Of a stretch of 12,398 nt of DNA, positions 7,489 to 12,218 are shown piece after piece. The translations under genes were made by a program, and so were the position numbers. The notes under the pieces were generated by a model that was not told the DNA's origin, searched no databases, and was given only the letters and a program-made list of their open reading frames with translations. How positions within the stretch are numbered: position 1 is the first letter of the stretch; each line of letters starts with the position of its first letter. The DNA is taken from positions 1 to 12,398 of IMG/VR virus record IMGVR_UViG_2645727991_000004, one strand, 5' to 3'. This DNA is from a virus (taxonomy: Duplodnaviria; Heunggongvirae; Uroviricota; Caudoviricetes).

Positions 7489-8708
7489 TTTCCGCCTCCT
7501 GCATCCCGTCCACGTTTTGCAGCCAGGGTCCAGCCTGATGAATGAGCTTCTCCGGGTTTATCACCGGTCATACTGTTGCAGTGCCACAGCGAGCCCCCCC
7601 ACGTCACCGTATCGCCGGGGTGGTAGGTTTCACCGGCTCTGAACACACCGCGGTAGAGCATCACCGGCAGGGAAAATGTTTTTTCCGTACGCTGGCCACT
7701 GCTGTGCCGGATCACCACAGAGAACAACCGCTCCCCCGTCATACTGACGTCAATATCCGCCACCCCGTCAACCAGGCATTCCCATCCCCGCATCCCGTGC
7801 GTTTTTTCATACGCCCGCCAGAATCCTCCCAGGTGTGTGGCATACGTGCCCCGGGGAAAGGATTTTTGATCGTCAATAGCGGGGAGCACTTCCAGAGCCG
7901 TGGCATCACGCCCGTCCTGCGGAGCCGGCAGGGCATTCACCGCCTCCAGAACCGCCTTCCGCAGAACATCCGGATCGTAATCACGACCATCACGCGGAGC
8001 AGGGATATGGCTTACAGCCTCTTTCACCATCTGCTCAAGCATCGGACGCACATCATCGGGGGTGATACTTTTGCCGTCTGCCGGCACCGGTATTTTCGCG
8101 ACCGCATCATTCACCGCCTGCTTCAGTACTTCCGGATCGTAGTCACGACCATCACGCGGAACAGGAATATGGCTTACCGCCTCTTTCACCATCTGCTCAA
8201 GCATCGGACGCACATCATCGGGGGTGATACTTTTGCCGTCTGCCGGTACAGGAATGCTCCCGACAGCATCATTCACCACCTGCTTCAGTACTTCCGGATC
8301 GTAATCACGACCATCACGCGGAGCAGGGATATGGCTTACGGCCTCTTTCACCATCTGCTCAAGCATCGGACGCACATCATCGGGGGTGATACTTTTGCCG
8401 TCCGCCGGTACCGGAATATTCGCAACCGCATCATTCACCGCCTGCTGCAGTACATCCGGATCATAATCACGACCATCACGCGGTACCGGAATGGTCCCCA
8501 CAGCGTCATCCACCATCGCCTGCAGAACCGGATGTACCTCATCCACCGTCACATGCTTCTGTAATACCGCCGACAGGGAAGCCAGTTTCTCTTCAAACGT
8601 TTGTGCCTGCGCGGCCATCTTCTCCTCAAATGTGCGCTGTAAATCCGCCAGCACCGTGGCGAATTCTTCTCCCAGTGCACGAATAATGGACAGTTCCCGT
8701 TCCGTCAT
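7485..8708 (-). CDS. Head/neck-module protein of unknown function: helical N-terminus, tandem 54-aa repeats, C-terminal domain with a carbohydrate-binding (CBM5/12-like) motif
   Basis: 407-aa ORF translationally coupled to the portal (ATGA at 8705..8708) and to the connector gene (ATGA at 7485..7488). It contains about four tandem repeats of IP[VA]PRDGRDYDP[DE]VL.QAVNDAV..IPVPADGKSITPDDVRPMLEQMVKEAVSH. The C-terminus reads F.AGETYHPGDTVTWGGSLWHCNSMTGDKPGEAHSSGWTL, which resembles the aromatic/Gly pattern of CBM5/12 domains. That it is a real gene is well supported; its function is inferred. Confidence 0.8.
   Translation of the reverse strand: MTERELSIIRALGEEFATVLADLQRTFEEKMAAQAQTFEEKLASLSAVLQKHVTVDEVHPVLQAMVDDAVGTIPVPRDGRDYDPDVLQQAVNDAVANIPVPADGKSITPDDVRPMLEQMVKEAVSHIPAPRDGRDYDPEVLKQVVNDAVGSIPVPADGKSITPDDVRPMLEQMVKEAVSHIPVPRDGRDYDPEVLKQAVNDAVAKIPVPADGKSITPDDVRPMLEQMVKEAVSHIPAPRDGRDYDPDVLRKAVLEAVNALPAPQDGRDATALEVLPAIDDQKSFPRGTYATHLGGFWRAYEKTHGMRGWECLVDGVADIDVSMTGERLFSVVIRHSSGQRTEKTFSLPVMLYRGVFRAGETYHPGDTVTWGGSLWHCNSMTGDKPGEAHSSGWTLAAKRGRDAGGGK
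7866..8546 (-). repeat. In-frame tandem repeat array, 162-bp period (about 4 copies; each unit is two related ~81-bp half-units)
   Basis: The motif ccggatcgta[ag]tcacgaccatcacgcgg recurs at 7970, 8132 and 8294, with a 1-mismatch copy (ccggatcataatc...) at 8456. atcggacgcacatcatcgggggtgatacttttgccgtc recurs at about 8041, 8203 and 8365. Spacing is exactly 162 bp, matching the 54-aa protein repeats. Array edges are approximate. Confidence 0.8.
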
Positions 8709-10280: not shown

Positions 10281-12218
10281 TCAGCCGCCGGACACACTGC
10301 CGTAGTTCACTCCGGTGATCACCGCCACCGCCGCGGTACGGCGACGACGCCAGTTGATCCAGCGCTCCGCACGGATGGCCACGCTGCCTGTCTGGAACAT
10401 GGAAACCAGCTCCACCGGGGACGGCGTGGTACTGTCGCCGGTCGGCTCAGACTGCATTTCCAGTGATGCCTCGCGGGACATATCCACTGCCACGCCGCCG
10501 TCATCCGCCAGATAAATATCCGGGGCATTCACCAGCACCAGCTGGTCACCCACGTACTGGGAGACAATCACCGGCAGCCCCTGGAAGGAGCCACCCAGCA
10601 GGGTCATGTCCGGGTATTCCTTCTGACCCAGCGCATTTTTACGCATGGACAGTGCCAGGGCATTGGTGCTGGACATCAGCCAGACCGCACCGGTGGGCTG
10701 CAGGTTTGCTGCCACAAACTGTCCAAACGCCGCCTCTGCATCCGCATCCGGGTTACCGGTTGATGCCGTGCCCTTCACATCATGGGTGATGGACGCCGGG
10801 GAGACATCTGCCACTGCGGCTTTTTTCGGGTCCACAAAGTCTGTATCCAGACGCGCCACCACCGCTTCCGCCAGCGCATTACGGACCAGTGCATCAGCAG
10901 CCGGACTGGAAAAACGGATCAATTCTTCCGTCAGTACCGCAATGGCCGACACTTTCGCATGACTGAAGGTGATGGATTCAAAATCAAACTTCGTCAGGGG
11001 TTTTGCCTTACCCTCACCCACCCAGCCGGCAGCACCGCCGGACACCTGGGCGTGCACACGGATATTGAACGGCACCTGACGAAGTGCAGGGATCCCGCCC
11101 TGACCAAATCGCCCGATAATGGTCTGCGGACGCAGGTAATCAATAAAGTCCTGTGCGTATTCCTGATATTCAGACAGGCTGCCTGCCCACTGCGGATCCG
11201 TGGTGGTCCCCGCGCCCACTGCCGATTTCAGGACATGATGCAGACGACTGTCATCCGGATACTGACGACGGGCCACTTCCAGGGCTTCAGATCGGACGCC
11301 TTTAGCCGCAGCCAGCGATTTGGCAAAGCGGGCGAAGCCAATCCCCTTATCCAGTTTCTGCTCCACACGGATCACCGGCGCAGAAGCCACCGCGGCCACA
11401 TTCCCGTTACCGGCCTGTTTCACCGGCTGCGCCGTGGCGGCCTTACCGGCTTCCAGTTCACGCAGACGCTTCAGGTGCGCATCCACCTGACGGATTTCCG
11501 CTGCGGTGTTGTCGTAATGCTCTTCCTCCTCCACATCCAGCGTGCGCCCTTCCTCTGCGGCTTTGGTCATGACCTCCTCAAGGGAGGCTGCCAGCGCTGC
11601 ACGCTTGTTTTCAAAACTTTTAATCTGTTCGCCAATATTCATTATGGTCTTTTCCTTATGAAAAACGGTTGTTGACTGTGCCGCAGCGCCGGCAGAAGAT
11701 GCGATTTTCACCACCGGTTTCCGGTTGCCGGACGCGGCAGAAAACGGGCGGTCGTAAGATTTAATGGTCCGGATGGTGCATTCCGCATTCGCGGGCACGG
11801 TGACGGCAGACACCTCCATCAGTTCCCAGCGCAGAAAATGCAGTCCGCCTCCGTCCAGAAAGGTGTATTCATGGGGACGGAAGCCCACGGACAGCCCCCT
11901 GACCAGCCCGGTCTTAATGGCCGCCCAGACCTCATCCAGCCGGGCAGCCAGTTGCGACGGCATATCCGGTACGGGCTTCACCAGTGTTGCCGTGATTTCC
12001 AGCCCTTCGCTGACCCGGCGTACCGTACACTGCCCCACCGGGCGGGAATGGTCATGCTGCCAGAGAAACGGGATCGCACTGCCAAACTCCGCGCCCTCCG
12101 GCTCCAGGATGTCACCATCCCGATCCGGAGAAGGTGTTGACGCAATCCCGGTGATCACCCGTTCATCCTCACTGAAGGATTTCATCGTCAGCAGGGAACA
12201 GGCCCGTTTAAGAGTCAC
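10281..12218 (-). CDS. Fused prohead protease (HK97 gp4-like) / major capsid protein (HK97 fold) polyprotein
   Basis: 645-aa ORF. The N-terminal ~160 aa (MKSFSEDERVITGIASTPSPDRDGDILEPEGAEFG...GLSVGFRPHEY...MEVSAVTVPANAECTI) match the caudoviral prohead protease pattern. A charged helical linker (EEEEHYDNTAAEIRQVDAHLKRLRELEAGKAA) resembles a delta/scaffold region. The C-terminal ~330 aa (RPQTIIGRFGQGG...VGEGKAKPL...AVLTEELIRFSSPAADALV...) look like an HK97-type capsid protein. The start is called as GTG 12218, 5 nt after AGGAGG; an in-frame ATG at 12185 is the alternative. Confidence 0.85.
   Translation of the reverse strand: MTLKRACSLLTMKSFSEDERVITGIASTPSPDRDGDILEPEGAEFGSAIPFLWQHDHSRPVGQCTVRRVSEGLEITATLVKPVPDMPSQLAARLDEVWAAIKTGLVRGLSVGFRPHEYTFLDGGGLHFLRWELMEVSAVTVPANAECTIRTIKSYDRPFSAASGNRKPVVKIASSAGAAAQSTTVFHKEKTIMNIGEQIKSFENKRAALAASLEEVMTKAAEEGRTLDVEEEEHYDNTAAEIRQVDAHLKRLRELEAGKAATAQPVKQAGNGNVAAVASAPVIRVEQKLDKGIGFARFAKSLAAAKGVRSEALEVARRQYPDDSRLHHVLKSAVGAGTTTDPQWAGSLSEYQEYAQDFIDYLRPQTIIGRFGQGGIPALRQVPFNIRVHAQVSGGAAGWVGEGKAKPLTKFDFESITFSHAKVSAIAVLTEELIRFSSPAADALVRNALAEAVVARLDTDFVDPKKAAVADVSPASITHDVKGTASTGNPDADAEAAFGQFVAANLQPTGAVWLMSSTNALALSMRKNALGQKEYPDMTLLGGSFQGLPVIVSQYVGDQLVLVNAPDIYLADDGGVAVDMSREASLEMQSEPTGDSTTPSPVELVSMFQTGSVAIRAERWINWRRRRTAAVAVITGVNYGSVSGG

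Follow-up and report, generated by a model that had tools for sequence, protein, structure and literature searches.

In phage HK97, the head genes follow the order TerL, portal (gp3), S78 protease (gp4) and capsid protein with a delta domain (gp5). A single ORF in which the protease is fused to the capsid was previously described in PAJU2, a Pseudomonas phage of the genus Detrevirus, and its autocatalytic cleavage was proposed (Uchiyama et al. 2009, as cited in PMC8306868). Closest to the locus presented here are the late modules of Stx phages of the 2851/BP-4795 type (Pankowvirus-like), which are also carried by many Stx1a-, Stx2a- and Stx2c-converting phages and by E. coli O157 prophages. 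The module and its gene order are already known, public annotations having shown the order for years; phrase searches of the literature on protease-capsid fusions and on the BP-4795/2851 head gene order brought up no paper discussing the order.

The DNA examined here, referred to as the window, is a whole draft contig of 12,398 nt. Over 98% of a 5.4-kb query it showed 96.5% nucleotide identity to phage 2851, with the same gene order, gene lengths and tail genes, and its proteins were 98.6–99.5% identical to those of BP-4795, YYZ-2008 and JLK-2012. By identity and colinearity, it is a Stx-phage late module of the 2851/BP-4795 type. We consider it highly probable that the region, from the late operon of a long-tailed lambdoid prophage of this type, is an intact head segment with its genes in their native, inherited order.

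Head genes of the window and the distribution of their order

All long ORFs of the window are on the minus strand, at which a protease-capsid fusion is followed by a small ORF, the portal, a repeat protein and head-tail adaptors (Table 1). After the head closure protein come a gp10-like protein, a tail completion protein, the major tail protein and the G/T chaperones, and then a 1080-aa tape measure and the M and L tail genes. Matches of the head genes to Pfam, PHROG and NCBIfam profiles were far above chance level. An earlier note, made from the letters alone, had proposed both this order and the gene identities (a polyprotein of protease, delta-like linker and capsid; a portal; a repeat protein; a connector), and the profile scans confirmed them. 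The same scans ruled out a reading that gene sizes and the lambda-like tail genes might suggest, with the 645-aa ORF as a terminase of the lambda A type and the 407-aa ORF as the capsid. No separate scaffold gene was found in the head module, no Rfam family was found in the window and the lambda-type GGGAAAG slippery motif was absent from the coding strand.

Table 1 Features of the head module and of the adjoining contig end
Feature	Position (nt)	Strand	Basis and remarks
Head closure protein Hc1	6801..7151	-	PF05521, PHROG 25
Head-tail adaptor Ad1 (HK97 gp6-like)	7162..7488	-	PF05135, PHROG 40
407-aa repeat protein	7485..8708	-	Tandem repeats; homologue after portal in relatives
CBM5/12-like module of the 407-aa protein	about 7509-7646		End of the C-terminal beta domain
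54-aa repeats of the 407-aa protein	7951-8483		3.3 copies of a 162-nt tandem repeat
HK97-family portal, 454 aa, intact	8705..10069	-	PF04860, TIGR01537, PDB relatives
G5 homopolymer	8720..8724	-	Alignment; near portal 3′ end
73-aa ORF	10015..10236	-	PHROG 829 (E=2e-39); between capsid and portal
Protease-capsid polyprotein, 645 aa	10281..12218	-	Pfam, TIGR01554, TIGR01543, PHROG 617; S78 protease, delta-like coiled-coil, HK97-fold capsid
Candidate internal start of the capsid part	AAGGA 11657..11653; ATG (Met193) 11642..11640	-	Shine-Dalgarno (SD) motif and ATG conserved
Terminator-like GC hairpin and T-run	12240..12257	-	Consensus scan; between TerL stop and capsid gene
TerL remnant	12282..12301	-	Last 5 codons and stop (...A V F F I *); aligned to phage 2851 and MB06102
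IS21-family (ISEc10) right end	12302..12398	-	Last 32 nt of istB and terminal inverted repeat, ending ...GACGTCTAATA

The polyprotein matched Peptidase_S78 (PF04586) at residues 48–152 with 34.7 bits (cutoff 21) and Phage_capsid (PF05065) at residues 386–635 with 53 bits, so the fusion supposed in the earlier note stood up to homology search. The HK97 major capsid model TIGR01554 covered residues 204–584 from profile position 3 (78.1 bits, cutoff 27.5), PHROG 617 matched with E=1e-261, and TIGR01543 reached 46.5 bits, under its cutoff of 59. His55 and Ser110, which we take from family knowledge to be the S78 catalytic pair, are invariant in 8 relatives at 35–50% identity. The NCBIfam model of a prohead protease/major capsid protein fusion (NF045541, scaf_prot_MCP2) gave 54 bits against a cutoff of 525, over residues 48–287 only; the 645-aa protein is of the same architecture class and lies outside that specific model. 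It showed 47.8% identity, over 99% of its length, to PAJU2 ORF003 ('prohead protease fused capsid protein'). The earlier note had counted the fusion among the less common arrangements; in its own family it is the majority form, nearly all of the best 150 cluster representatives at 50% identity being full-length fusions.

The portal's identity was likewise upheld by homology, with Phage_portal (PF04860) at E=7e-81 and portal_HK97 (TIGR01537) at 355.9 bits (cutoff 112). Its relatives among solved structures include 9lbn, 8cez (HK97) and 6tba, RcGTA included. Together, an HK97-family portal, an S78 protease and an HK97-fold capsid with an N-terminal delta (scaffold) domain make this an HK97-type head module. 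The 73-aa ORF runs 55 nt into the portal start. Its homologues hold the same slot in Enterobacterales relatives, and small ORFs occupy it in PAJU2, vB_FUB47a and Mcat2; similarity to the small ORF preceding the portal in phiKO2 was not detectable.

About 100 phage records matched the 5.4-kb query with 96–99.9% DNA identity over 98% of its length, and 1,240 of 5,426 complete E. coli genomes carry the module at a coverage of at least 80%. The capsid-before-portal order was seen in relatives down to 37–49% identity from Alpha-, Beta- and Gammaproteobacteria, and it is kept at 47–57% identity in 28 species-representative genomes, these counts being of phylogenetically non-independent loci. Among the 28 are Proteus, Arsenophonus, Diaphorobacter, Rhizobium, Methylobacterium, Brucella and Haematobacter. 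Salmonella, Pantoea and one metagenome have the same order with Pfam-labelled genes. The canonical order (TerL, portal, protease, capsid) was found in phiKO2 and RcapNL, which are more distant capsid relatives.

A candidate internal start and a variable G-run

Capsid-only relatives of the polyprotein start exactly at query residue 193–196. Nearly all of 28 other loci examined have an in-frame start at this junction with an SD-like motif (AAGGA/AAGGG/GGAGG) 5–9 nt upstream, and an SD dG of -5 or lower was found for 95.5% of the junction ATGs vs 14.5% of 255 other in-frame ATGs taken as control. Since this internal ribosome-binding site and the ATG at Met193 are conserved, they suggest that a capsid-only protein is made as well. 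The candidate start has what a nested gene would need, namely a putative ribosome-binding site of its own and a conserved in-frame start. Ahead of the whole gene, its AGGAGG motif and GTG start come after the GC hairpin and T-run, an element shared with phage 2851 and E. coli MB06102.

The 407-aa protein consists of an N-terminal coiled-coil, the 54-aa tandem repeats, whose number differs between copies of the module, and a conserved C-terminal beta domain. The Pfam match to CBM_5_12 was weak, and a PDB sequence search with the protein gave no significant match. An AF2 model of the C-terminal domain had a pLDDT of 77–93 over domain residues 50–140, and Foldseek matched this model weakly to chitin-binding domains (E about 0.01–0.1), which might support a CBM5/12-like tip of the protein and nothing more. 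In all relatives having the fused capsid gene, a homologue directly follows the portal. The first homologue search returned close E. coli relatives only, mostly partial fused 'portal' calls.

The start of the 407-aa gene overlaps the portal stop as ATGA, and from family knowledge the two proteins would be made by translational coupling. With five Gs near the portal 3′ end, as in the window, the two genes are separate; with six, as in phage 2851, they form a single 859-aa fusion. It could be argued that they are in fact one gene, read through by programmed -1 frameshifting or by phase variation at the G-run, with the repeat protein as an extension of the portal. With a -1 slip, the G5 run would yield the same protein as the G6 allele, both alleles are common in IMG/VR contigs (75 with G5 vs 41 with G6), at least 8 switches were counted on a tree of the flanking DNA, and PGAP/RefSeq labels the split form 'frameshifted'. 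However, the portal tail of the split frame (...MLRGxLxK*, in the window ...KAMLRGILRK*) is conserved as protein across genera together with the ATGA overlap, while most relatives have AGAGGA and no G-run at this point. Moreover, the G5 does not form, in this frame, an X XXY YYZ slippery heptamer of the classical kind, and no conserved slippery site was found at the junction beyond E. coli, Pantoea and Phytobacter. We thus regard a single frameshifted gene as very unlikely. Because of the conserved tail and overlap and the relatives without a G-run, the split arrangement appears from these alignments to be the ancestral intact state, for which no frameshift is needed, and the 859-aa 'portal' (phage 2851, PHROG 2271) would be a derived +1 G variant.

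The recurrent switching and the persistence of both alleles could also mean that the run is a hypermutable switch that decides whether the fibre-like 407-aa protein is made separately or fused to the portal C-terminus, giving heritable heterogeneity of virion architecture. We think this rather improbable, and neutral slippage, with the fusion being tolerated, accounts for the data just as well. If true, the switch would add a second unreported expression trick to that of the putative nested protease-capsid/capsid gene.

The contig end and the terminase genes

The final 97 bases of the window matched the ends of annotated ISEc10 copies from many E. coli genomes (97–100% identity over about 100 nt) and that of the CFT073 copy base for base up to the IS end. 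The istB 3′ end and the inverted repeat assign the element to ISEc10 of the IS21 family, its right end alone being present in the window. In phage 2851 and MB06102, TerS and TerL are directly upstream of the module, with TerL (553 aa) ending 63 nt ahead of the capsid gene; HNH, TerS and TerL are found there in relatives, and TerS and TerL in all those that share the order. The insertion point of the IS lies some 5 codons ahead of the TerL stop. The observation in the earlier note that no terminase is visible is true of the letters and is an effect of the contig end, which falls inside ISEc10 at the TerL 3′ end. From the relatives, we infer that TerS and TerL lie beyond the IS in the source genome, although exact-pattern scans of IMG/VR gave no match to the predicted left IS junction (...GAATATGCGG running into TATGAGACG..., the left end of ISEc10), nor to the right one.

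The order itself had been taken as a possible sign of a rearranged or defective prophage, and the IS next to the module does attest to at least one disruptive event in this copy. Yet the structural ORFs of the window all equal those of phage 2851 in length, and the synteny comparison that the earlier note had proposed showed the order to be native to the lineage, from the roughly 100 phage and 1,240 complete E. coli genomes to relatives in three proteobacterial classes, the 28 species representatives among them. Phages known to be inducible or isolated share it (2851, BP-4795, PAJU2, vB_FUB47a and Mcat2). A rearrangement particular to one decaying prophage is therefore extremely improbable, whereas the other reading offered at the time, that of a distinct head-module lineage, was correct. 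An assembly chimera of unrelated pieces, which had been named as a way in which the earlier reading might fail, is scarcely conceivable. In its favour, the last 97 bases are IS sequence foreign to the phage, and the exact IS/TerL junction was in no complete E. coli genome of the collection. Against this, the same junction recurs base for base in several independent assemblies and sequencing runs, whose contigs all break there, as expected of a repeat-induced contig end, and the other 12.3 kb are colinear with many genomes.

The IS, and not the gene order, is all that might point to a defect in this copy. It interrupts the TerL frame and separates TerL from the whole set of downstream head genes; IS21-family elements also occur within other prophage structural genes in E. 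coli, and whatever follows position 12398 is out of view. An IS-mediated deletion or inversion might have removed or displaced the terminase, or truncation or polarity might have inactivated packaging, leaving a packaging-defective prophage. We find this unlikely, though it deserves some weight: the last 20 nt of TerL are kept on the phage side as a simple insertion predicts, with a 6-bp target duplication like that flanking the CFT073 copy TerL would lose only about 3 residues, every visible gene is intact, and such a defect would have no bearing on the gene order.

The module among known head modules

The native order of the lineage is HNH, TerS, TerL, protease-capsid polyprotein, small ORF, portal, fibre-like repeat protein, Ad1, Hc1 and tail genes, with the portal block and the protease-capsid block exchanged relative to HK97 in an ancient event, inherited since, and not in a local rearrangement. 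Judging by what is known of the family, the whole block would be transcribed as one late transcript. The S78 protease, linked through the delta-like coiled-coil scaffold domain to the HK97-fold capsid in the 645-aa product, would be packaged as part of the shell subunits; once inside the procapsid, it is expected to remove itself and the delta domain. The Met193 start would probably add a protease-free capsid protein.

Few prophage head modules of E. coli have been sequenced as often as this one. It has little discovery value and may rather serve for calibration. The 'canonical' HK97 order does not hold everywhere: throughout a clade found in three proteobacterial classes, the protease-capsid block precedes the portal, and gene order alone should therefore not be taken to indicate prophage decay. 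Draft contigs of such prophages often stop at IS or repeat boundaries, which can imitate missing genes.

Compared with the phage 2851 group, the window differs by the ISEc10 at the TerL 3′ end and, compared with phage 2851 itself, by its G5 allele with split portal and 407-aa genes instead of the 859-aa fusion. PAJU2 belongs to the same lineage type, with a single protease-capsid ORF, annotated as a virion structural protein, between TerL and portal. Its order of terminase, fusion, small ORFs, portal, a 334-aa protein overlapping the portal stop and adaptor is that of the window, and its ORF007 is likened to the 407-aa protein by place. It differs in host and genus, and in having two small ORFs between capsid and portal where the window has one.

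With HK97, the module shares the portal, protease and capsid families, the adaptor and closure proteins, a delta-type scaffold domain substituting for a scaffold gene and, in relatives of the module, the HNH-TerS-TerL packaging genes. It departs from the canonical order in running from the TerL remnant to protease-capsid, 73-aa ORF and portal, in joining protease and capsid in one reading frame and in the extra fibre-like gene after the portal. In lambda C/Nu3 and Mu I/Z, a long product with an N-terminal protease is made alongside a shorter one, whose translation begins in frame within the gene at a ribosome-binding site of its own; the ratio of protease to structural protein would be set in this way. 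The gene in the window would be nested in the same way, and, in contrast to these, its predicted shorter product is the capsid protein and not a scaffold.

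Gene content of the window and its close relatives

In the 12,398-base window, every long ORF lies on the minus strand. The Pfam, TIGR and PHROG matches, together with the solved portals related in sequence to the 454-aa portal (including those of HK97 and RcGTA), agree with the gene identities and order read in the earlier note, which were thus correct. The 645-aa protein combines an S78 prohead protease domain (PF04586) with an HK97-type capsid domain (PF05065), matches PHROG 617 at E=1e-261 and aligns to TIGR01554 from profile position 3 onward, at residue 204. A guess, based on gene size, that this ORF encodes a lambda-type terminase was rejected by the protease and capsid domain matches.

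Features of the window, in order of transcription (TerL, terminase large subunit; Ad1, head-tail adaptor; Hc1, head closure protein)
Feature	Position	Strand	Remarks
ISEc10 (IS21-family) right end	12302-12398		istB 3' end and terminal repeat; matches the CFT073 copy base for base as far as the IS end
Weak sigma-70-like match	12300-12327	minus	-35 in IS end, -10 at IS/phage junction; 9/12 positions
TerL remnant	12282-12301		last five codons and stop
Terminator-like hairpin and T-run	12240-12257	minus	between TerL stop and capsid gene start
Protease-capsid protein, 645 aa	12218..10281	minus	PF04586 residues 48-152; PF05065 residues 386-635
Candidate internal start, Met193	11640-11657	minus	AAGGA and ATG; conserved; capsid-only relatives start there
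73-aa ORF	10015-10236	minus	PHROG 829
Portal, HK97-family, 454 aa		minus	PF04860 E=7e-81; TIGR01537 356 bits
G5 run	8720-8724	minus	
407-aa repeat protein	7485-8708	minus	own ATG overlaps portal stop (ATGA)
Ad1, Hc1, gp10-like protein, tail completion protein			after 407-aa gene, in this order
Major tail protein	5234-5950		C-terminal Ig-like domain (Pfam Ig_2/Ig_3/I-set)
G/T chaperones, 1080-aa tape measure, M, L			after major tail protein, in this order

We searched for close relatives with 5.4 kb spanning the head genes. About 100 phage records matched at 96-97.5% identity over 98% of the length, including Enterobacteria phage 2851 (Pankowvirus), JLK-2012 and many Stx1a-, Stx2a- and Stx2c-converting phages, while protein identity to BP-4795 and YYZ-2008 was 98.6-99.2%. 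Identity to E. coli chromosomes reached 99.9%, and a match to the head genes was present in 1,610 of 5,426 complete E. coli genomes (coverage of at least 80% in 1,240).

Between the 73-aa ORF and the start of the portal gene there is an overlap of 55 nt; the homologue of this ORF in Salmonella and other relatives is 55-56 aa long and stops at the portal start. No similarity was found between this ORF and the small ORF preceding the phiKO2 portal. For the major tail protein, close Salmonella relatives occur both with the Ig-like domain (234 aa) and without it (147 aa), as seen when loci L121 (13063-13506) and L122 (13064-13768) are compared.

The upstream end of the contig

In phage 2851 and E. 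coli MB06102, genes for an HNH endonuclease and the small (TerS) and large terminase subunits lie directly upstream of the protease-capsid gene, with 63 nt between the end of TerL and that gene. The similarity of the window to both ends at position 12305, and ISEc10 sits about five codons ahead of the TerL stop, in the orientation of the late operon. The window is the entire contig JHSU01000048.1 of draft assembly GCA_001266125.1. The same IS/phage junction recurs in several other independent assemblies and sequencing runs, but a search of 5,426 complete E. coli genomes did not find it. All contigs sharing it break off upstream of the capsid gene, at a distance of 84-181 nt, which fits the way short-read assemblies break in repeats. 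The recurrence in independent assemblies and runs speaks against an assembly chimera; the junction is therefore genuine, and the terminase, noted earlier as not visible in the window, is unseen since the contig ends in the IS.

We infer that TerS and TerL lie beyond the IS in the source genome, past position 12398 where the window ends. The ISEc10 copy of CFT073 is flanked by a 6-bp duplication; if the insertion here were simple, with a duplication of that kind, TerL would be shortened by only ~3 residues. The predicted left IS junction was not found in IMG/VR.

The sigma-70-like match is possibly a hybrid outward promoter towards the capsid gene, such matches occurring at chance-level frequency in the scan. 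The terminator-like hairpin, which phage 2851 and MB06102 share apart from a difference in the loop, would demand read-through (late antitermination) for the head genes to be expressed. Other ISEc10 insertions in prophage morphogenesis regions (E. coli JNEC-KY173; search hits H38 and H43) lie between decoration gene and capsid gene in a lambda-like prophage, beside minor tail protein L and beside a small terminase. ISEc10 appears to hit prophage late operons repeatedly.

The portal and the 407-aa repeat protein

The phage 2851 portal is annotated as one 859-aa protein, in which the 454-aa and 407-aa ORFs are joined, and PHROG 2271 models this 859-aa "portal". PGAP labels the split form a "frameshifted" pseudogene (RefSeq; E. 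coli MB06102, 9236-11820 of locus L002). A single G in a homopolymer separates the two forms: the window has G5, phage 2851 has G6. Both alleles are common, with G5 in 75 IMG/VR contigs and G6 in 41, and G6 yields the long fused frame in every case. A tree built from 1,050 nt of DNA flanking the run in 108 copies shows at least 8 changes of state, and 11 pairs had identical flanks yet unlike run length. The split-frame portal tail (...KAMLRGxLxK*) is kept as protein across genera, followed by ATGA and MNERELSLIK..., and most relatives have AGAGGA without a G-run, which argues that the split form is ancestral and intact. The fused form is then a derived variant that recurs and is apparently tolerated; for this junction, conserved frameshifting of the programmed kind is unlikely. 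Given the conserved tail, the "frameshifted" label in MB06102 looks like an annotation artefact.

The 407-aa protein has an N-terminal coiled-coil, a variable number of IPxPxDGKSxTxDDV-type repeats and a conserved C-terminal beta domain. The 54-aa tandem repeats differ in number between copies (homologues span 194-556 aa) and take a collagen-like form (GKDGxDG) in relatives from alpha- and betaproteobacteria. The AlphaFold model of the C-terminal domain is confident at residues 50-140, the final ~50 residues of the domain weakly resemble CBM5/12 chitin-binding modules, and the precomputed Pfam matches of the protein include a newer family, PF28083. The protein resembles a fibre that is coupled to the portal and carries a carbohydrate-binding-like tip.

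Gene order and the protease-capsid gene across the clade

Placement of the protease-capsid gene ahead of the portal had been taken to indicate a distinct head-module lineage or a rearranged or defective prophage. By Pfam labels, Salmonella, Pantoea and a metagenomic relative (~75% identity) have HNH, TerS, TerL, protease-capsid, portal, Ad1 and Hc1; between portal and Ad1 lies a protein of 300-350 aa whose gene overlaps the portal stop. A scan of one genome per species gave 28 loci, including Proteus (57% identity), Arsenophonus (53%), Diaphorobacter (52%) and, at 47-49%, Rhizobium, Methylobacterium, Haematobacter, Brucella and Dichotomicrobium, and the order was identical in every one with enough flank. 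Isolated phages show this order too. In Pseudomonas phage PAJU2 the terminase precedes a "prohead protease fused capsid protein", after which come two small ORFs, the portal, a 334-aa protein and an adaptor; in Burkholderia vB_FUB47a and Moraxella Mcat2, protease and capsid are separate genes, yet still ahead of the portal. In contrast, the remoter phiKO2 and RcapNL (capsids 23-26% identical) keep the canonical TerL, portal, protease, capsid order. The order is thus non-canonical with respect to HK97 and shared throughout one clade, which argues that the swap of the portal and protease-capsid blocks is old and inherited. The distinct lineage holds, while the rearranged or defective prophage does not fit an order found in the ~100 phage records, the species-level loci and isolated phages. 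It is how a large phage lineage, sequenced for a long time, is normally laid out, and it tells nothing about decay.

The fusion, described earlier as a less common arrangement, is not unusual in the family to which it belongs. Scanning all 1.84 billion cluster representatives yielded 1,191 clusters with E<=1e-30; among the top 150, almost all were 630-680 aa long and aligned across residues 1-640, and a few of these 150 were capsid-only (452-478 aa), their first residues falling at query residue 193-196. NCBIfam includes a named model of a protease/capsid fusion, with the 645-aa protein scoring below its cutoff. In the case of PAJU2, a 2009 study cited in PMC8306868 proposed both the fusion and its cleavage by autocatalysis. 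Some database proteins of ~1,080-1,094 aa (P0001, P0363 and P0372) carry roughly 440 extra residues N-terminal to the protease-capsid part, and P0001 has a TerL ATPase domain (PF03354); such entries represent gene-call artefacts or else genuine read-through fusions of TerL and capsid.

Relatives at 35-50% identity all keep His55 (motif LLWQHxH) and Ser110 (motif GLSIGF), consistent with the S78 catalytic pair. A complete delta-domain capsid gene starts at residue 193 (MNIGEQIKSFE...), the point at which separate capsid genes begin in Diaphorobacter, one Brucella locus, vB_FUB47a and Mcat2. Nearly all fused loci retain an in-frame ATG at this junction, preceded at 5-9 nt by AAGGA, AAGGG or GGAGG, though the linker is not conserved as protein sequence. 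Shine-Dalgarno pairing of <= -5 kcal/mol was found for 95.5% of junction ATGs vs 14.5% of 255 other in-frame ATGs of the same genes, these sequences being related and not independent samples. We infer a nested gene with two products, in which the full-length product would bring its protease into the shell within a capsid subunit, while most capsid protein would come from the candidate internal start. This nested start and the G-tract joining the portal to the fibre-like protein are modest side leads of the head module. Lambda C/Nu3 and Mu I/Z are nested genes, and the protease-capsid gene would be analogous to either.
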